Assembly (NCBI GenBank): GCA_963664815.2
Contig: CAXXHB010000003.1
Span: forward strand, 3,520,001 to 3,584,000
Origin: Spirochaetota bacterium
GTDB lineage: Bacteria; Spirochaetota; UBA4802; UBA5550
Direction: 5' to 3'
DNA length: 64,000 nt
The position numbers and the translations under genes were made by a program. Below the pieces are notes generated by a model, which ran no database searches, had not been told where the DNA came from, and saw nothing but the letters and a program-made list of their open reading frames with translations. Within the stretch, counting starts at the first letter, position 1; each line of letters begins with the position of its first letter. Of this stretch, positions 25,943-34,678 are shown piece after piece.

Positions 25943-26380
25943 CTATTTTCTAACCATCATGGAACCGCACTTCGGGCAGGGAATTCCATTACATGGAACT
26001 CCGGCTGCATGAGGAATAACCGTACCGCACTGAAGACATAAACACTCGCCTTTTACTGATGTCCCGGATTTTCTTCCTCCGCCGCCACAATCTTTACCCG
26101 GCCATCCTGATCCGGCACCCATCCCCGGACCTGGACCTCTTCTGCTCCTTGAATCCATGCGATTATTTCCGGAAAATCCATCTCCGGCCCGGGACCCGGA
26201 AAGCTCAATTGAGATAGCCCCTTTTTTGCATTTATCAATACATATACCGCACGCGATACATAATGCAGCATCTACTGCAGCTTTTTTTGTCAGCTCATAC
26301 AGTGTTATCGCACCAACCGGACAGTATTCGATACATCTCCCGCATCCGGTACATATTTCATTATTAATTACAGCCGCCAT
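25943..26380 (-). CDS. 2x4Fe-4S ferredoxin fused to Gly-rich linker and C-terminal CxCxxC/CxxxxCxxC module
   Basis: Two CxxCxxCxxxC motifs; CLCLQCG..PH..G.PC...CPKCG. Confidence 0.85.
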   Translation of the reverse strand: MAAVINNEICTGCGRCIEYCPVGAITLYELTKKAAVDAALCIACGICIDKCKKGAISIELSGSRAGDGFSGNNRMDSRSRRGPGPGMGAGSGWPGKDCGGGGRKSGTSVKGECLCLQCGTVIPHAAGVPCNGIPCPKCGSMMVRK

Positions 26381-26429
26381 TTTATTTATTACCTCAACTT
26401 AGCTGATATTTCAGCTTTATCCAATAGAA

Positions 26430-26825
26430 TTAACCTTTAAGCCAGTTTTTCCCCTCTCCTGATTGTGAAGCATCAAATGTACGTATTATATCATGAGCTC
26501 CAGATAACCTTGCACCTTGAACTATTGACATCTTTGTTATAGTAGAATTTCCGATTAAAGCGATTTTAACACATCCGTTTTCAATGGCTTTTTCCTGATT
26601 CTTTGCTTTTTCGGCATTTACATCCGCAGTGACAACTCGGCACTCACTCACATCTGAAAATATTTTCCACCCGGGCTTTGTAAGTTTTCTGGCATCATCC
26701 CAGTCTTTATGAAAGACAGGAACAACAGACATATCTTTCCAGAAGCCCTTCATTTTCCAGTACACAATATTTTCAGTTTCTTCGTAACTTAACTCATAGT
26801 ATTCATTTTTAGCAATGTTCTTCAT
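26430..26825 (-). CDS. hypothetical protein (SpoIIAA/STAS-like pattern)
   Basis: KGFW...F..DW, D.S, A..W C-terminus. Confidence 0.6.
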   Translation of the reverse strand: MKNIAKNEYYELSYEETENIVYWKMKGFWKDMSVVPVFHKDWDDARKLTKPGWKIFSDVSECRVVTADVNAEKAKNQEKAIENGCVKIALIGNSTITKMSIVQGARLSGAHDIIRTFDASQSGEGKNWLKG

Positions 26826-27005
26826 TTAAATCCTCTTACCTTTATATTTATAGATACTTTAATGTTTTCTGATGTTTATTTATAAAACAGGAATCAATAA
26901 AATGGAACCAGTTCTTAAAATACTGCACAAAGAACCAGCTCCATTATACGACCTTAAATATTCTGATATTAATCTTTTCTTTCCGGATTCTACCCCGCTT
27001 TCTTA

Positions 27006-27386
27006 TCAGGGATTATCTCTTTTAGCCGAAGATTGAGTCTCAAGATCCTTGATTCTCTCATTTATCGCTGCCAACTCCTTCTGCATAAACTCCGACTGTT
27101 CTTTCATAATCATCAGTTCATGCTCCGCAGAGTATTCAGAACTTGCATAATCTGCCCCTGCATAATTTGCCATCCTGCAATTTCTCAATCCGCGTCCCCT
27201 GAAAATCATATCGGCTGCATAAGACTGATTCCTCCTGCCTCTGCCGCCGCCTCTTCCAAAACCGGAATATCCACAGCCCCGTACCGGATTAACATATCCC
27301 GGTGCGGAGTAGCCTGCGCAAAAACCTGTTCCCCGCCCTGTCATAGGCCCTGCTCCCATTGGTCCTCTTCCATTTCCTGCCGGCAT
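27006..27386 (-). CDS. DUF5320-family Gly/Arg-rich protein with C-terminal coiled coil
   Basis: MP.G.G.GP.G.GPMTGRG.G.C; AGGAGG RBS; start re-set to ATG 27386. Confidence 0.88.
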   Translation of the reverse strand: MPAGNGRGPMGAGPMTGRGTGFCAGYSAPGYVNPVRGCGYSGFGRGGGRGRRNQSYAADMIFRGRGLRNCRMANYAGADYASSEYSAEHELMIMKEQSEFMQKELAAINERIKDLETQSSAKRDNP

Positions 27387-27408
27387 ATCATGCCTCCTTA
27401 AATTATAG

Positions 27409-27429
27409 TAATGAAAACCATTTTCATTA
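27409..27429. promoter_or_regulatory. Fur-family operator TAATGAAAA-CCA-TTTTCATTA
   Basis: Palindrome upstream of the DUF5320 gene, similar to the box at 27939. Confidence 0.7.
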
Positions 27430-27444
27430 TATCCGCAAAAAAAA

Positions 27445-27909
27445 TTAACCATGCCCCGATTTACAATTACCACATATCCCGTAAAAACTAACCAGGTGAT
27501 CATTTATCTGAAAATTATATTTCTTTGAAAGAAAATCCTGCGTTTTTCCCAGACAGTTAATCTCTTCATCTATAAAATCCTTATAATCAATAATCTTTTT
27601 GCATTTTACGCAGATAAGATGATGATGATGCCCCTTTCCGCCTGGATTGTTAAGCAGCTCAAACCTTGCGTGTCCGTCACCAAAATCAAATTTCTGAACT
27701 ATCCTCATCTGCTCCAGAAGCTCAAGGGTACGATAAATTGTTGTTAATCCGATTTCCGGACTAAGAGAGTGAGCCAGAATATAAATATCAGACGCGCTCA
27801 GATGCTCCTTCGTTTCATTAAGAATATTCAGAACAACTTCCCTTGAAGCTGTTATTCGAATGCTGCTCTGGTTAAACCTGTCCTGCCACCATGGCCCTTT
27901 ACCACGCAA
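27445..27909 (-). CDS. Fur-family transcriptional regulator
   Basis: R.T..R..VL, HLSA..IY, IGL.T.YRTL, HHHH.IC..C, YG.C..C; TTG start with GGAGG. Confidence 0.93.
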   Translation of the reverse strand: MRGKGPWWQDRFNQSSIRITASREVVLNILNETKEHLSASDIYILAHSLSPEIGLTTIYRTLELLEQMRIVQKFDFGDGHARFELLNNPGGKGHHHHLICVKCKKIIDYKDFIDEEINCLGKTQDFLSKKYNFQINDHLVSFYGICGNCKSGHG

Positions 27910-27938
27910 ATTCTGACCTCCAGCATAATCAATTTATT

Positions 27939-27957
27939 GAAAATGATTTTCATTATC
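27939..27957 (-). promoter_or_regulatory. Fur box GATAATGAAAATCATTTTC (autoregulatory)
   Basis: 17/19 match to GATAATGATAATCATTATC, ~30 bp upstream of the Fur gene. Confidence 0.8.
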
Positions 27958-27996
27958 AATAAATTATCCATAGGTGCTAATGTCAACTAAAAAATT

Positions 27997-28470
27997 TTAA
28001 CCGTAAACATGCTTTCTCTTGAATATATCCATCCGCTTCTGGCAAAGCTGTTCAATTTCCCTCAGGCAATTGCTCATCTCTGCAAAGTGTTCAGATATAT
28101 GCATGTCTGTCTCCAAACAGGTCATCGGCTCAATTATCGCATAGGCCTGAAGAATATATTTTTCCAGTGATAAATCCGTTTCTCGAAGTTCCTCTTCCTC
28201 AGATTGTGATATTTTATCAAAGTTATACTCACCTCCGATGAACCTGTGATCCATCTCCTTTTTCATCCTTTCAGTACGTGTCCTTACCTGAAGCACCCTG
28301 GACATAATTTTTTCCATACCCATCTCTTTTGCTTTTACAAGGCACTCTTCATTTTTCTTAACTATTTTTTCGAATAATGCAGACAGTCTGTTGCGGATAA
28401 TCTCTTCCCCTTCACCAGCCGGGTATTCATTATAACCATTGAAATTATTATACAACATAGATTCGTTCAT
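27997..28470 (-). CDS. hypothetical helical protein (sigma54-driven)
   Basis: GGAGG RBS; downstream of the sigma54 promoter at 28558. Confidence 0.75.
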   Translation of the reverse strand: MNESMLYNNFNGYNEYPAGEGEEIIRNRLSALFEKIVKKNEECLVKAKEMGMEKIMSRVLQVRTRTERMKKEMDHRFIGGEYNFDKISQSEEEELRETDLSLEKYILQAYAIIEPMTCLETDMHISEHFAEMSNCLREIEQLCQKRMDIFKRKHVYG

Positions 28471-28813: not shown

Positions 28814-30124
28814 CTATTCTATATTAAGCTTTTTTATTTTTCTCCACAGAGTTGATGAATCTATACCAAGCTCTTCTGAAGCCTTTGTTTTATTTCCGCT
28901 GTTTTTTTCGAGAGACTTGATAATATAAACTCTCTCCATTTCAGCAAGTGTGAGGTTTTCACTGAAAACTGTTTCAGAATGCCTCAGATGATTGGGGAGA
29001 TTGTTTACCCCGATGTATGCCTCTCTGCACAGAACAAAAGTATGCTCAATAATATTCTCAAGCTCCCTGACATTCCCCGGATAGCTGTAATCCATAAGAA
29101 TATTCATAACCTCATCGGTAACACCCTCAATATTTTTCTCTTTTATAATATTGAATTTTCTTATAAAATGATTAATAAGAAGCGGAATGTCCTCTCTCCT
29201 TGATGCAAGAGTAGGAAGGGTTATATTAATAACGTTAATCCGGTAATAAAGATCCTCTCTGAACCTTCCGTTTTTCACTTCAGTCATAAGATGCTTGTTA
29301 GTAGCCGATATTATTCTTACATCAGACTTCAGAGGCGTTGTCCCGCCTAAAGGCTCATACTCCCTTTCCTGAATAAATCTCAGGAGTTTAGCCTGAATTG
29401 CAGGAGATACCTCACCAATCTCATCAAGGAAAAGAGTACCCCCCTCTGCAAGTGAAACCTTCCCTAGTTTATCCTTTCTTGCATCTGTAAATGCTCCAGC
29501 TTTATATCCAAATAGCTCCGATTCAAGGAGATTGTCAGGTACTGCAGCACAATTTATTGTAACTACAGGTTTTTTACTCCGGTTACTCAGGTGATGAATT
29601 CCCCGTGCAACAAGCTCCTTTCCGGTACCGCTCGGCCCCTCTATAAGAACCGTACTGTCGCTGGTTGCTATATCCGGAAGTATCGTAAAAAGGTCTTTGA
29701 AATATTTACTTTTACTCACTATATCTTCTATGGTATAATTTGATTCGATCTCTTTGCGGAGAACTTCCATATCGGATATGTCTCTGAAAGTTTCCACTCC
29801 CCCTATGATATTTCCATCTTTATTCTTTAGCAGAGCTGTACTGACGGTAATAGGAATTTTATCGCCAAGGGAATTTACAACATAGACAGTTTTATTTATA
29901 ATGTTTCTTCCTGTTGCAAGAGTCTCTTTCAATGCGCATGAGTGTTCACATATACTCGCGTGAAAAACCTCAAAGCAAAGTTTACCGGTGGCATCTCTTT
30001 CATCTATTTTCAGAATTTCAGCAGCTGCCCTGTTTATGGATGTTATTCTGAAATCCATATCGACAGTGAATACACCGTCAGCAATGCTGTTGAGAATAAT
30101 ATTTTTTTCTTCCTGTTCAATCAT
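28814..30124 (-). CDS. PAS-AAA+-HTH sigma54 activator, OrpR-like
   Basis: PAS with C-X8-C-X3-C (CFEVFHASICEHSC), GPSGTGKE, ESELFG..GAFTDA, LFLDEI, PGNVREL, Fis-type HTH. Confidence 0.92.
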   Translation of the reverse strand: MIEQEEKNIILNSIADGVFTVDMDFRITSINRAAAEILKIDERDATGKLCFEVFHASICEHSCALKETLATGRNIINKTVYVVNSLGDKIPITVSTALLKNKDGNIIGGVETFRDISDMEVLRKEIESNYTIEDIVSKSKYFKDLFTILPDIATSDSTVLIEGPSGTGKELVARGIHHLSNRSKKPVVTINCAAVPDNLLESELFGYKAGAFTDARKDKLGKVSLAEGGTLFLDEIGEVSPAIQAKLLRFIQEREYEPLGGTTPLKSDVRIISATNKHLMTEVKNGRFREDLYYRINVINITLPTLASRREDIPLLINHFIRKFNIIKEKNIEGVTDEVMNILMDYSYPGNVRELENIIEHTFVLCREAYIGVNNLPNHLRHSETVFSENLTLAEMERVYIIKSLEKNSGNKTKASEELGIDSSTLWRKIKKLNIE

Positions 30125-30386: not shown

Positions 30387-30514
30387 CGGAAACCTCCATT
30401 TATTTTAAATAATCTGATATTAATATATTTAATATTTCCAATCAACCTATAATCTGTTAAACTTTAAATATACTTATATATTACCAACTTCATCGAAGAC
30501 ATATGCCCCGGTTA

Positions 30515-31807
30515 CTACGACATCCCCTCCAGTTCTCTTCCGGCGGTAATTGCCGCGATTGTCCCATCGGATACAGATGTTGTTATCTGCCTGTAAGATT
30601 TGTTGATTACATCACCGGCGGCAAATATTCCCGGAATGTTCGTCCTCATATGCTGATCGGTAATTATATACCCCTGATCATCAGCTTCCAGTTTGCCGCT
30701 GAAAAGCCCTGTGTTAGGCCTCATTCCTGCGAAAATAAATACTCCATCCGCGCGGATTTCACGTCGCGAACTGTTTTTTAAATTTTCTATTTCAATCAGC
30801 ATCGATCCGTCAGGCTCCCTTTTAAAAGATCTCGGTTCATGCTCAAATATAAAATCAATTTTATTATTTGAAATTGCTTTTTCCTGTGCCACTTTGTTCG
30901 CCTGAAGTTTATCAAGCTGATGAATTATTGTGACTCTGTCAGCATATTTCGTTATAAACAGTGATTCTTCGACAGCGGAGTTCCCTCCGCCTATTACAAC
31001 AACATGTTTTCCTCCGTAATACTTGGCGTCGCAGGTGGCACAATAGGATATTCCCCTACCCTTATACTCCCTCTCCCCGTCTATCCCAAGCTCCCTGTAT
31101 GTTGAACCTGTTGACAAAATAATCTTCTTCGCTCTGACAGTTTCATATCCATCTACAAGGATCTTTTTTTTAACAAGGTCAACATCCGATACATCAACTG
31201 CAGATCTGAAAACAACGCCGGCTTCTTTTGCCTGTTCATTCATAAAATGAGTAAGCATAAAGCCTTCAACAGGCTTGATAAACCCCGGGTAGTTTGACAC
31301 CATATGCGTTGTTGAAACCTGCCCGCCGGGAAGAGATATATCTACAAGTATTGTGTCAAGCATTGCCTGTGCGGAATATATTCCCGCAGTTAATCCGGCA
31401 GGACCACCGCCAAGTATCAAGACATCACATTCTGTATCAACAGGCTTGATTTTACCTCTGAGTTCTGCTGATTTTTCCTTCGTGAGCATAGATTCAATGT
31501 TTGCGACCAGTTCACTTCTTTTAATCCCGCCGCTGAGCCTCACACCGGTCTCTTTGCCTTTATAAAAGAATAATACAGTAGGAGATGAGGTTACCCCCAT
31601 TTTTTCAGCAAGTGCCCTGTTCTCCTGACGGAATATTTTCAGAAATTTAACGTCATCTCCATAAATCTCACTCAGTGGTTCAAACTTAGCAGCGAGGGCC
31701 TCACAGGGAGGACATTCGGTTGAATAAAAATCAAGAGCAACAGCGCCTCCCCCCAGAACCTCTTGTTCAAAATCCGCCGCGCTTATATATTTAATTTTAT
31801 TATTCAT
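30515..31807 (-). CDS. thioredoxin-thioredoxin reductase fusion
   Basis: N-terminal Trx DFYSTECPPC; GGGPAG, CATCD, GGGNSA, AAGD, QI.T.VSDG.IAA. Confidence 0.92.
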   Translation of the reverse strand: MNNKIKYISAADFEQEVLGGGAVALDFYSTECPPCEALAAKFEPLSEIYGDDVKFLKIFRQENRALAEKMGVTSSPTVLFFYKGKETGVRLSGGIKRSELVANIESMLTKEKSAELRGKIKPVDTECDVLILGGGPAGLTAGIYSAQAMLDTILVDISLPGGQVSTTHMVSNYPGFIKPVEGFMLTHFMNEQAKEAGVVFRSAVDVSDVDLVKKKILVDGYETVRAKKIILSTGSTYRELGIDGEREYKGRGISYCATCDAKYYGGKHVVVIGGGNSAVEESLFITKYADRVTIIHQLDKLQANKVAQEKAISNNKIDFIFEHEPRSFKREPDGSMLIEIENLKNSSRREIRADGVFIFAGMRPNTGLFSGKLEADDQGYIITDQHMRTNIPGIFAAGDVINKSYRQITTSVSDGTIAAITAGRELEGMS

Positions 31808-33120
31808 TGATTTACTCCTTTATTGAAATATAACGATAATCCCATCTCAAGCAGGGACTTCACAGGCCTGCAGTCAGATGAGAGTATTTTACCCGTTTTA
31901 TTCTTGGCCACAGCACCGCATCCTCCGCCGCACAAGAGCTGTGACTCACATTCCCTGCATTCAGGTATGCATGTCACATCACGCTGCTGCCACGTACTGA
32001 TAATATCATCTCTTGAAGTCACCTCCGGGAAAAATGTTCCCAGTTCCTCTCCGGATTTGCCAACGGTAGCAGTGCATGAATATATCTTCCCTGTATAATC
32101 GAAAGCCCATTCGCTTTTACAGGCGGGGCATGAATCAAATAACGGATGTGGAAGCTCACCGTTGTCAAAAAGAAACTTTGAAACTGAAAACAGAGGCCTG
32201 TGAAACTCAAGTATATGAGGATGCTCATTTATAAGTTTATACAGCTTTTCATACAACTCCACCCGTTCAAAAAGTTTTTTATTACCTGCCATACAGTGAT
32301 GCAGTTCATAATTTCTCCCTATCTGTGTTTTAAACAGCGGATTTTGTGTCCATCCCTTTGATATTGCAAAAGATGCAAAATCCGGGAGGTTATCAATATT
32401 CTCCCTGTCTATAACCATTCTGAGATTTATCGGAAACCCGTTTCTCAGAGATTCATCTATACCTGCAACTATACGGTCAAATGTCTCACCCCTGTTTTTC
32501 ATATAGCGCCGTCCGTCATGGACTTCACGCGTACCATCAAGTGTAACCTGTATTTCTCTAATATTCCCCTCAGACAGAATATTCATGTAATCAACCAGGT
32601 TGTAACCGTTTGTAACAACAGCAAGATCCGTTTTTTTCATCGACGCTTTTTCTATAATCATCCGGAGATCATTACGGTTTTTATCGCCCGGAAGAAGCGG
32701 TTCGCCGCCGAATATTGTTATATACTTTTTCCTGCCGATGAATTCCCTTTCTATATAGGCAAAGAAAGCATCCACAGCATGTTCAGTCAATGGCGCCTTC
32801 TCAGGAGCATACCCATCCTGATAGCAGTATGAACAGGCGAAATTGCATTCATAACCAGGCACAAAAAATATCTGTATTTCTGAATTTTCTCTCTCCTCGA
32901 TAAAATCAAGATATGCCAGTTTGTATCTCCGGTTCTCATCAGATTCATCTGAGAGATATCCCTTTGCAGCATACTCTTCCATGTCTGAATATTCACCCTT
33001 AATTACTTCGGCGGCTTTATCGGGAGTAAGAATATCAGCATTCCGGGACAGGGAATTAAGAATAAAATAATTCTCCGAATCTGCCAGTTTTCCAAATATA
33101 TTATGTTTTGAAAATTTCAT
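31804..33120 (-). CDS. radical SAM/SPASM-domain protein, putative peptide maturase
   Basis: CNFACSYC, FGGEP, TNG, TLDG..HD.RR; SPASM C..G.IYSC...C..CRECESQLLCGGGC...C; ~80-aa N-terminal extension (possible RRE). Confidence 0.92.
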   Translation of the reverse strand: MKFSKHNIFGKLADSENYFILNSLSRNADILTPDKAAEVIKGEYSDMEEYAAKGYLSDESDENRRYKLAYLDFIEERENSEIQIFFVPGYECNFACSYCYQDGYAPEKAPLTEHAVDAFFAYIEREFIGRKKYITIFGGEPLLPGDKNRNDLRMIIEKASMKKTDLAVVTNGYNLVDYMNILSEGNIREIQVTLDGTREVHDGRRYMKNRGETFDRIVAGIDESLRNGFPINLRMVIDRENIDNLPDFASFAISKGWTQNPLFKTQIGRNYELHHCMAGNKKLFERVELYEKLYKLINEHPHILEFHRPLFSVSKFLFDNGELPHPLFDSCPACKSEWAFDYTGKIYSCTATVGKSGEELGTFFPEVTSRDDIISTWQQRDVTCIPECRECESQLLCGGGCGAVAKNKTGKILSSDCRPVKSLLEMGLSLYFNKGVNQ

Positions 33121-33153
33121 ATTATTATCACCTATCCGTGTTCAGCTAAGATT

Positions 33154-33188
33154 CACGGGGTGCCGGGTTTTTAACCCGGTCCCCCGTG
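33154..33188 (-). promoter_or_regulatory. strong GC stem-loop right after the peptide stop (mRNA-stabilising or attenuating)
   Basis: CACGGGG-ga-CCGGGTT-aaa-AACCCGG-ca-CCCCGTG; no U-tract. Confidence 0.7.
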
Positions 33189-33192
33189 CCTG

Positions 33193-33288
33193 TCAATCGT
33201 GACATCCCGCCACTATTGTAGAAATCTTTGCACAACATTGTGCAACCCTGGAATCCGCCGATTCCTTTTTCCTTATCAGACTGTTCAT
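33193..33288 (-). CDS. putative RiPP precursor peptide, 31 aa MNSLIRKKESADSRVAQCCAKISTIVAGCHD
   Basis: Hand translation; AAGGAG RBS; immediately upstream of rSAM/SPASM; basic leader plus Cys-containing core. Confidence 0.8.
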   Translation of the reverse strand: MNSLIRKKESADSRVAQCCAKISTIVAGCHD

Positions 33289-33339
33289 AATTTGAACTCC
33301 TTATATATTCACCGGCCTTATTGCCGGGTGTATACCATT

Positions 33340-33987
33340 TTAAATATTTTTAAAACCTGTTATCGTCCAGCTTGCCACATCGATCATCCCCTTGGAGTAT
33401 GGTACCGATTCTTCAATAATTCTGATATCGGCAAAACCCGCTTTTTCAAGTGATTCAAGATATTCACCGCGTGTAACCGATCCGGCCCAGCACTCCGCTA
33501 CAGCCTGCGGATCATTCCTGTATTCATCCGGCACTGGCAGGATTGAATATATATCACTTACAATAAATCTTCCCCCGTTTTTAAGAATCCTGTATATACT
33601 GCTCCAGACTCTGTCCTTATCCTCCGCATGGTTTATTGTGCAGTTTGAAATAACAACATCTGCAATTGAATCACCAAGCTTTATATCTTCCAGTTCCGAT
33701 CTTATAATAGCGGCATTCTTTATATCAAATTTTTTGATGAGCTCCTCAGCTTTTTCAATCATCCCATCGGATATATCCACCCCATAGGCGAAGCCGCTTT
33801 CCCCGGCCATATCCGCCAGTCTTACAACATCGTTTCCTCTGCCGCTGCCAAGATCAACACATACCTCGCCTGCTTTTACACCTGCATGATTTATTGCCCC
33901 GCCGCATGAAAGACAACATGAACTCTGTGACAGTGATGAATAACGCTGATTTATAGTTTTCAGCTGTATTTTCTTATATTCACTCAT
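33340..33987 (-). CDS. ArsM (arsenite methyltransferase)-like SAM methyltransferase
   Basis: SSCCLSCG, GE..VDLGSG.G.D, DVVISNC.IN, ECWAG. Confidence 0.8.
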   Translation of the reverse strand: MSEYKKIQLKTINQRYSSLSQSSCCLSCGGAINHAGVKAGEVCVDLGSGRGNDVVRLADMAGESGFAYGVDISDGMIEKAEELIKKFDIKNAAIIRSELEDIKLGDSIADVVISNCTINHAEDKDRVWSSIYRILKNGGRFIVSDIYSILPVPDEYRNDPQAVAECWAGSVTRGEYLESLEKAGFADIRIIEESVPYSKGMIDVASWTITGFKNI

Positions 33988-33988
33988 T

Positions 33989-34405
33989 TCATTTCTCCAT
34001 TGCCTGTGTTAAATAGATCAGCCCGTTTTCTACAGTATTCAATTCATCATCACGCAGCTGCATTTTGATCTTTTTTTCGCATTCATTTTTAAGTTTTATA
34101 AACGCTTTATGTTTTTTTATTCCCTCTTCGCTGAGCGACAGGTGAACAAACCTTCTGTCATCACTGGTTTCTGAGCGTTCCAGCAGATTTTTTTCAATCA
34201 TCTGATCTACTATCCTGCTCACCCTTGACGGAGAAAGCTTATTCCGTTCAGCCAGCTCATTGCCGTTTATCATCTCGCCGGGTTTTATAGAGAGAAGTAT
34301 AAAGGATTCCGGCCTGGTTAAGTTTTCATTTTTAAGCGTATCCTCGTTGAGGCTGTAGCATATATCACTAAGGTGTAGAATCGTTTCAATTATGTTAATC
34401 TCCAT
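33989..34405 (-). CDS. MarR-family transcriptional regulator
   Basis: LT..E..IL, ELA....S.SRVSRIVD, DDRR...L.L...G; start re-set to ATG 34405 (AGAGGA). Confidence 0.9.
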   Translation of the reverse strand: MEINIIETILHLSDICYSLNEDTLKNENLTRPESFILLSIKPGEMINGNELAERNKLSPSRVSRIVDQMIEKNLLERSETSDDRRFVHLSLSEEGIKKHKAFIKLKNECEKKIKMQLRDDELNTVENGLIYLTQAMEK

Positions 34406-34426
34406 AATATTTTCCTCTGTCAATAA

Positions 34427-34466
34427 TTGTTATTAACAAATATAATCAGTGAGTACAAAAAGTCAA
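34427..34466 (-). promoter_or_regulatory. sigma70-like promoter (TTGACT-16-TATATT) overlapped by palindrome TTGTTA-T-TAACAA (MarR operator candidate)
   Basis: Seen directly upstream of the MarR gene. Confidence 0.55.
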
Positions 34467-34678
34467 GCAATATGTTAAGTATTTTATAATTTTATTAAAT
34501 AATCAATATTTCGCAACTTCCCCCCATAAATAATACAAATATTTCAATATAATCTTAATTTCTAATAAATCAGAATTTGGCATAGCTGTAATTTAAAGGG
34601 AAAGTAATAATGAGGCCATACAGATTCATTATAAATATTATTGCAGGGGCGGCACCTGGATTTGTTTATTACAAATTT

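Follow-up and report, generated by a model that had tools for sequence, protein, structure and literature searches.

The DNA analysed here, a window of 64,000 nucleotides (nt) from a Spirochaetota genome (contig CAXXHB010000003.1, positions 3,520,001 to 3,584,000), carries on its minus strand a tightly packed operon of five genes. In order, these encode a MarR-family regulator, a methyltransferase resembling arsenite methyltransferases of the ArsM type, a peptide of 31 residues, a radical S-adenosylmethionine (SAM) enzyme of the SPASM kind and a fusion of thioredoxin (Trx) to thioredoxin reductase (TrxR). The peptide is the subject of this report. It is probably a translated substrate, of the ribosomally synthesised and post-translationally modified peptide (RiPP) type, of the radical SAM/SPASM enzyme whose gene begins 72 nt downstream, and its product probably stays within the cell, where it would take part in thiol or metalloid chemistry.

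The peptide gene and its conservation

The 31-codon gene occupies positions 33193..33288 of the minus strand. Read from 33288 to 33193 it translates as MNSLIRKKESADSRVAQCCAKISTIVAGCHD and ends in TGA. Translation and conservation together divide it into a leader (MNSLIRKK), a linker and the core VAQCCAKISTIVAGCHD, which runs directly into the stop codon; its cysteines are C18, C19 and C29. An AAGGAG ribosome-binding site, read directly from the sequence at 33297..33302 (minus strand), lies 8 nt ahead of the ATG. Among 80 distinct relatives of the gene, 31 have a Shine–Dalgarno-like 4-mer.

When the radical SAM protein was used as a query, orthologues were found in 17 of 61 related genomes, the genome of the window included, which yielded 18 loci. 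The peptide gene is present in 17 of these loci by tblastn, always between the methyltransferase and the radical SAM genes, and the eighteenth locus begins inside the radical SAM gene at the first base of its contig. The peptide is 93.5–100% identical where the enzyme is 78–82% identical. A wider enzyme-anchored sample consisted of the best 80 of at least 582 relatives, which were among 590 listed stretches of DNA. It was searched with a loose pattern (CC, 5–14 residues, C, at most 4 residues and a stop, within 450 nt upstream of the radical SAM gene), and a peptide was recovered in this position in 75 of the 80 more distant loci. Two of the remaining five have the peptide some 1.1–1.3 kb upstream and one has just 93 nt of upstream DNA, while in the last two the peptide is encoded elsewhere in the genome, adjoining an ArsM-like gene. 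All 75 peptides share the core A-Q-C-C-A-K-x-S-x4-G-C-H-D-stop. In the most distant members, whose radical SAM enzymes are 37–38% identical to that of the window, all four genes keep their order, and A20S and S23T are the only departures of the core from the wider consensus.

The two ends of the peptide are conserved and its middle is variable, an arrangement which is the layout of a RiPP precursor. In the 80 distinct peptides of the enzyme-anchored set, the first eight positions are occupied by M (78), K (55), S (71), L (66), I (52), K (49), K (63) and K (67), which makes the leader basic (median net charge +4). Both the sequence and the length of the linker vary, so that the peptides total 24–39 residues in this set and up to 58 in protein clusters. 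Additional cysteines, often as CC, are found in the linker of 9 of the 80. Versions of the peptide from Myxococcota carry CCAP.

At the DNA level the core is free to change wherever the protein is not. Across 85 distinct core DNA sequences, the fixed alanine and glycine residues use four of their four codons and serine five of its six, and residues with two codons use both; the count itself demanded the fixed residues. As this count and the searches with the core pattern both required the core to be present, the case for its invariance is drawn from the tblastn and loose searches. Beyond the genomes, a profile of the peptide compared with 1.84 billion representative proteins returned 118 clusters at 50% identity, nearly all of 30–58 residues and ending at the core, with ALCCAK, CCSK and GCHN as rare variants. 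No genuine fusion of the peptide to a larger protein was found among these clusters. Three candidates were rejected: P0200 is a repeat protein unrelated to the family, in which the CC-K motif is degenerate, and the sequences of P0231 and P0216 depart from the family core close to the C-terminal end of the core, with no terminal G-C-H-D. The exact peptide of the window is present, without a name, in a collection of 15 billion proteins. It matched no family in NCBIfam or Pfam at E ≤ 0.01; the best scores in the ESM Atlas (0.81) were at chance level, and no selenocysteine variant of the core was seen in the loci searched.

The peptide gene is thus real and under strong selection at the protein level. 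An earlier note on this DNA, made from the letters alone, had proposed the reading frame, its AAGGAG site and a precursor-like shape. The first two are borne out, and the third holds across the family, in which M-K-S-L-I-K-K-K is conserved at the N-terminus and the core at the C-terminus is near-invariant, with a variable linker joining the two. The same note had named beforehand a failure of the cysteine positions to be conserved as one of the results that would tell against its proposal; the core shared by the peptides of all 75 peptide-positive, enzyme-anchored loci includes these cysteines.

The linkage can also be approached by starting with the peptide. A degenerate DNA pattern that covered only the core, and not the stop, gave 83 stretches with 84 occurrences, and in 84 of 84 a stop codon follows G-C-H-D directly. 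Of the 79 cases for which at least 500 nt of downstream DNA is available, 78 have a radical SAM gene on the same strand no more than 300 nt downstream. The methyltransferase gene is found within 900 nt upstream of the peptide in 57 of 60 cases, and a TrxR gene downstream in 40 of 42.

The one exception among these 79 is in a Bacteroidales genome (L068:1049-3620, plus strand), where a second copy of the peptide stands behind genes for an HdrC/QmoC-like iron-sulphur (Fe-S) protein and a generic SAM methyltransferase, with a metallo-β-lactamase (MBL)-fold protein encoded between these two. At L085:295-2675 (minus strand) the peptide likewise follows an HdrC/QmoC-like Fe-S protein and a generic methyltransferase, with no adjoining radical SAM gene. 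The HdrC/QmoC-like protein matches NF038018 at 9.6e-46, below the cut-off. The L068 genome has a full cassette elsewhere; in the L085 genome, whose completeness is unknown, the radical SAM gene was not found with this query. Judging by this arrangement, the same peptide seems to have a second context in Bacteroidales.

Other departures from the common gene order are also seen. In two Bacteroidia genomes (L124 and L136, with L191 and L190) the cassette is split, and in both of them the peptide gene stays beside the ArsM-like gene. The other part of these cassettes comprises a small ferredoxin-like open reading frame (ORF), an MBL-fold gene, a Trx gene in L124, the radical SAM gene and Trx-TrxR. 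On one Bacteroidales contig (L040:33-8000) the peptide, radical SAM and TrxR genes occur twice in tandem, about 3.5 kb apart. Many Bacteroidales loci (L019-L181) have a gene of about 80 codons upstream of the methyltransferase, two of which match DUF6132; a separate small Trx is encoded between the methyltransferase and the peptide, and DUF302 is found nearby (15 + 3 loci).

The distinct upstream neighbours of the cassette include MarR regulators (17 of 86) and a zinc-ribbon protein (8 of 86), and none of the 86 is an ArsR. Other neighbours that recur are DUF302, DUF1847, DUF6132, a small Trx, peroxiredoxin, OsmC and a second, generic methyltransferase. The label ‘TehB-like’ was considered for this last protein and rejected, as its best NCBIfam match is BioC (1e-16), TehB reaches just 4.7e-6 and all matches are below their cut-offs. 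Acr3, ArsB and ArsC are absent from the recurring flanking families, and no protease, transporter or immunity gene is among the recurring neighbours of the cassette.

The gene set is widespread in anaerobic bacteria, with carriers labelled Spirochaetota, Bacteroidota, Ignavibacteriales, Myxococcota, Fibrobacteres, Acidobacteria, Syntrophomonadaceae and a deltaproteobacterium; the taxon labels are those of the submitters, and several of the counts come from bins of uncultured genomes. Its distribution is patchy: an orthologue of the radical SAM enzyme is found in 39 of 401 sampled genomes of the phylum, 33 of 336 of high quality, and in 21 of 152 genera. A FastTree phylogeny of 111 radical SAM sequences largely follows phyla, with 3 label changes each for Bacteroidota and Spirochaetota against about 30 in shuffles.

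The partner enzymes, the regulator and the transcript

The radical SAM/SPASM enzyme (31804..33120, minus strand; 438 residues) matches Pfam Radical_SAM at 9.1e-20. Its CX3CX2C cluster motif reads CNFACSYC, and C92, C96 and C99 are invariant in 35 sequences, as are C276, C331, C349, C388, C391, C397, C401 and C417. A SPASM pattern can be read in the C-terminal part (C334-x9-G-x4-C349, C388-x2-C391-x5-C397-x3-C401 and C417), most of which is invariant, and the Pfam SPASM model gives no match to this piece at E ≤ 10. Of the NCBIfam models, CefB (NF038107) matches residues 1–436 at 1.7e-42 with 145.8 bits (cut-off 600), followed by TIGR04463 (113.9 against 525), PapB (NF047865; 2.5e-30, 105.8 against 340), the SCIFF maturase (TIGR03974; 84.7 against 425) and MftC (1.5e-15, 57.2 against 265). 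CteB is the best match in the PDB both by profile (3.6e-20) and by fold (E 1.6e-17, TM 0.65–0.69), and the predicted model of the enzyme, which has a pLDDT of 88.8, aligns with it over the full length.

The N-terminal region of about 80 residues is predicted to fold as three strands (7–11, 18–22 and 27–31) and three helices (33–41, 47–52 and 59–78) with pLDDT 93–95, a model which resembles a RiPP recognition element (RRE). No Pfam model, RRE or other, matches residues 1–90.

Between the peptide and radical SAM genes is a hairpin of 14 pairs (33154..33188, minus strand) that begins 4 nt past the peptide stop codon and is not followed by a U-tract. Its stems are 33188-33182/33160-33154 and 33179-33173/33169-33163, with a 2x2 internal loop and a terminal loop at 33172-33170. 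For the 80-nt stretch that contains it the folding energy is −31.4 kcal/mol (z = −4.73), a stability reached by none of 200 dinucleotide shuffles. In an alignment of the window with 7 close relatives the consensus stem has 15 pairs, and 6 keep the pairing through changes on both sides. Of 121 distinct intergenic regions between the peptide and radical SAM genes, 33 are shorter than 35 nt; the other 88 were folded and scored against 60 mononucleotide shuffles each, with 67 below z = −2 and 57 below −3. In the relatives some of these hairpins are followed by U-runs and others, as in the window, are not. The hairpin is therefore recurrent but not universal, and since it recurs with compensatory changes, a role in setting the transcript ratio, or in transcript stability, is plausible. 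A hairpin on the 5′ side of the peptide gene (33305..33335, minus strand) is weak: at z = −1.38 it is matched by 20 of 200 shuffles, which is the level of chance.

With these results the interpretation given in the earlier note can be assessed as a whole. Its proposals of a precursor-shaped peptide tied to a neighbouring radical SAM enzyme and of a 14-bp hairpin 4 nt past the stop and without a U-tract have stood up, the hairpin as a feature that recurs. The RRE-like N-terminus that it suggested for the enzyme is seen in the predicted model, though not in Pfam matches. The weaker 5′ hairpin that it also described is at the level of chance.

Upstream of the peptide lies the gene for the SAM methyltransferase (33340..33987, minus strand), a shortened ArsM-like protein of 215 residues. 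It matches the NCBIfam arsenite methyltransferase model NF008823 at 1e-49 with 169.5 bits, below the cut-off of 263, and covers positions 59–232 of the 272 in the model; the N- and C-terminal parts of ArsM are missing. The best PDB matches by sequence are ArsM/AS3MT structures (5evj, 5.5e-22), and with a predicted model of pLDDT 95.9 the top 11 Foldseek matches are all ArsM/AS3MT (TMq 0.73–0.81). C28, C116 and C166, which are invariant in 30 sequences, align with the ArsM motifs GCG, SNC-x-IN (here SNCVIN) and EC-x-AG (ECLAG), the positions of C72, C174 and C224 in CmArsM as numbered in PMC6138428. The fourth ArsM cysteine, C44 of CmArsM, and the full-length architecture were looked for and not found in the 215-residue protein. 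A CC pair (C24, C25), a possible counterpart of C44, stands 3 residues ahead of C28. This is the best ArsM-like gene in the genome, where none passes the NCBIfam cut-off.

The Trx-TrxR fusion (30515..31807, minus strand; 430 residues) begins 4 nt before the end of the radical SAM gene, overlapping its stop. It matches TIGR01292 at 1e-96, with 323.3 bits just under the cut-off of 343.45, and Pfam Thioredoxin at 3.7e-16. The Trx motif CPPC is kept in 97 of 102 distinct fusions and the TrxR motif CATCD in 99 of 102. The fusion is an extra copy; a separate housekeeping TrxR is encoded elsewhere in the genome.

The first gene of the operon encodes the MarR-family regulator (33989..34423, minus strand; 144 residues; Pfam MarR_2, 7.4e-11), and its stop codon adjoins the start of the methyltransferase gene. 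Of 18 cassette-linked MarRs, which share 29–79% identity, all 18 have both C22 and C115, a pattern which, from sequence comparison, suggests thiol-based sensing. An identification as OhrR was considered and set aside, as the protein matches generic MarR structures only and none specific to OhrR. A promoter-like site, TTGACT and TATATT separated by a 16-nt spacer, lies 5′ of this gene at 34439..34466 (minus strand) with 10 of 12 matches in a consensus scan. Such sites are no more numerous in the region than in shuffles of it, so this one is only a lead. A search with Rfam over the whole window gave no match at the gathering score. No RNA run was found to cover 30500–34500; the five records that do are of DNA type and come from two studies.

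Possible functions of the peptide

If the peptide is the substrate of the neighbouring enzyme, its leader would be bound by the RRE-like N-terminal domain and the enzyme would form at least one intramolecular thioether cross-link in the core. CteB, PapB and CefB each join a cysteine sulphur to a carbon of another residue. Since the nearest relatives of the enzyme make thioethers, an intramolecular link from cysteine to carbon is its most likely reaction. As the cassette is not accompanied by a protease or a transporter, the product would not be exported; it would instead remain in the cytoplasm and serve the ArsM-like methyltransferase as a partner or substrate carrying thiols. It might accept a methyl group on one of its cysteines, or it might carry a soft metalloid. 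The dedicated Trx-TrxR would keep the cysteines of the peptide, of the methyltransferase or of both in the reduced state, and the two-cysteine MarR would induce the operon when a thiol-reactive signal is present. The hairpin downstream of the peptide gene probably shifts the transcript balance towards the peptide and away from the enzyme.

The absence of genes for export and cleavage, the extreme conservation of the core, the dedicated reductase and the retention of the methyltransferase with the peptide all point to an intracellular product with thiol or metalloid chemistry. Between the two, the gene context leans towards redox over arsenic. Precedents exist for both kinds of methylation: ArsM is described as taking As(III) from the tri-thiol conjugate As(GS)3 through three thiol transfers, with Trx re-reducing its disulphides (PMC6138428), and AS3MT is able to methylate cysteine thiols (PMC9013690).

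Several points weigh against this proposal. No Pfam RRE or SPASM model fits the N- or C-terminal piece of the radical SAM enzyme, and the NCBIfam maturase models score so far below their cut-offs that its reaction could differ from theirs. The putative thioether is drawn solely from relatives, and the structure match on which the comparison turns shares 18% identity with the enzyme. A thioether would also use up cysteines and leave fewer for metal or redox chemistry, which sets the two parts of the proposal at odds. Finally, the apparent invariance of the core comes in part from search patterns that demanded it.

One alternative, which is doubtful though it could coexist with the role of the peptide as an enzyme substrate, is that C18, C19 and C29 bind As(III) or another soft metalloid and deliver it to the ArsM-like methyltransferase. 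The peptide would then replace the glutathione conjugate preferred by canonical ArsM, with Trx-TrxR recycling the disulphides of the methyltransferase and the radical SAM enzyme only shaping the peptide. The affinities of the methyltransferase in sequence and fold, and the three ArsM cysteine positions that it keeps, are in line with such a delivery, as is the need of ArsM for thiol transfers and for Trx described above. Split cassettes leave the peptide beside the methyltransferase, some peptides have further CC motifs in their linker, and the MarR has its two invariant cysteines. Against this, no ars gene was found in the cassette neighbourhoods examined, the methyltransferase is below the ArsM cut-off and is missing both terminal parts of ArsM, and the neighbours that do recur are concerned with thiol redox instead (Trx, peroxiredoxin, OsmC and the HdrC/QmoC-like protein).

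These same neighbours lead to a somewhat less likely alternative, in which the peptide matures into a thiol/disulphide cofactor acting against oxidant or electrophile stress, with the vicinal Cys-Cys as its active pair. Its reductant would be the private Trx-TrxR or, for some Bacteroidales, the HdrC/QmoC-like membrane protein, and the methyltransferase would cap or tune one of its thiols. An extra Trx-TrxR with both redox motifs conserved would suit such a cofactor, as would the copies of the peptide behind the HdrC/QmoC-like Fe-S protein in L068 and L085, and a MarR with two cysteines fits thiol sensing. In its extremely conserved core, which ends exactly at the C-terminus, the peptide recalls cofactor precursors such as MftA. 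What a redox cofactor leaves unexplained is why the methyltransferase keeps precisely the cysteines with which ArsM binds metalloids; moreover, evidence for an oxidative-stress regulon was not found, and the MarR does not resemble OhrR in particular.

More speculative, and improbable on present evidence, is a combination in which the peptide serves as a scaffold for metalloid or thiol methylation. Here the radical SAM enzyme would form a C–S bond, or conceivably a bond from carbon to metalloid, As(III) or another soft element of this kind would sit in the cysteine triad, the bound atom would be methylated by the ArsM-like enzyme and Trx-TrxR would close the redox cycle. If true, this would amount to a pathway for a peptide-based organo-metalloid or methyl-thiol cofactor; no description of such a pathway was found in the literature searched.

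A radical SAM/SPASM gene beside a short cysteine-containing peptide is the usual layout for an exported antimicrobial RiPP such as a bacteriocin-like sactipeptide or a ranthipeptide, and the NCBIfam matches of the enzyme are RiPP maturases. An antimicrobial is nevertheless very improbable here, as no protease, transporter or immunity gene recurs beside the cassette and the core is almost identical over at least seven phylum labels, whereas weapons diversify; the tree of the enzyme, moreover, mostly follows phyla. The 17-residue core is barely changed over Spirochaetota, Bacteroidota, Ignavibacteriota, Myxococcota, Fibrobacterota, Acidobacteriota and Bacillota, with partner enzymes that are 37–60% identical, and a constraint of this strength suggests a role as a cofactor, or one with multiple partners, rather than as an antibiotic. 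That the ORF arose by chance, or is purely a regulatory leader peptide whose product has no function, is scarcely credible: it is short, unnamed in public sources and followed by a hairpin, but its amino acids are conserved with free synonymous change, and across phyla, while the flanking intergenic DNA diverges.

Returning to the peptide as an intracellular enzyme product, the closest known parallel is SCIFF with its maturase CteB/ScfB from Clostridia (PDB 5WGG and 5WHY). Both systems place a short, conserved cysteine peptide beside a radical SAM/SPASM enzyme whose N-terminal domain, for the window enzyme on the predicted model, is RRE-like, and CteB is the best match of the window enzyme in sequence and in structure. 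No protease or exporter is seen in the window cassette; to our knowledge SCIFF systems also do without them. The score with the SCIFF maturase model is far short of its cut-off (84.7 bits against 425), and the three cysteines of the window peptide form another motif. We know of no SCIFF system that carries an ArsM-like methyltransferase or a private Trx-TrxR.

The ranthipeptide systems PapA/PapB (freyrasin) and CefA/CefB are related through their enzymes, PapB and CefB being among the best NCBIfam matches. The cysteine close to an aspartate in C-H-D could be a donor/acceptor pair of the PapB type. Unlike these precursors, the window peptide has a single core and not repeated CxxxD units or a cysteine at every fifth position, and its product is probably not exported. 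Mycofactocin (MftA/MftC) provides another parallel: a tiny peptide with its conserved residues at the very C-terminus that is modified by a radical SAM/SPASM enzyme for use within the cell. The window cassette, however, has no equivalents of MftB, MftD or MftE, its core is based on cysteine and not on Val-Tyr, and the MftC score is below the cut-off.

ArsM/AS3MT together with Trx/TrxR is the parallel on the side of the methyltransferase, which has its closest fold and sequence there and shares the three cysteine positions and the coupling to Trx. It differs in its length of 215 residues, in its sub-cut-off score, in the absence of ars context in the loci examined and in being paired with a ribosomal peptide and a radical SAM enzyme.

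The peptide falls outside all Pfam and NCBIfam models, and neither the radical SAM enzyme nor the methyltransferase attains the cut-off of any of them. The gene callers behind public records mostly leave the peptide gene unnamed. No description of the cassette was found in full-text searches, whose reach excludes about 1.7 million PMC articles and most subscription journals. The main text of a compendium of RiPP radical SAM enzymes (PMC10288494), whose supplements may list the family, contains no instance of thioredoxin, arsen-, Bacteroid- or Spirochaet-. The chemistry of the cassette seems not to have been described by anyone. It unites three chemistries that have not been described together, namely radical SAM cross-linking of a peptide, methylation of the ArsM type and a private thioredoxin system. 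It could reveal a new peptide-derived thiol cofactor, or how anaerobes poor in glutathione handle arsenic-like elements.

Genes downstream of the operon

Directly downstream of the operon in the window is a gene for a sigma-54 activator with a PAS domain (28814-30124, minus strand), for which the best NCBIfam match is PrdR at 3.5e-105, below the cut-off. It is followed by a run of small genes (25943-28470, minus strand) encoding a ferredoxin with a glycine-rich tail, a DUF5320 protein (27006-27503) and a Fur-family regulator (27445-27909). The Fur-family regulator contains an HHHH run, and its ORF overlaps that of the DUF5320 protein by about 60 nt.

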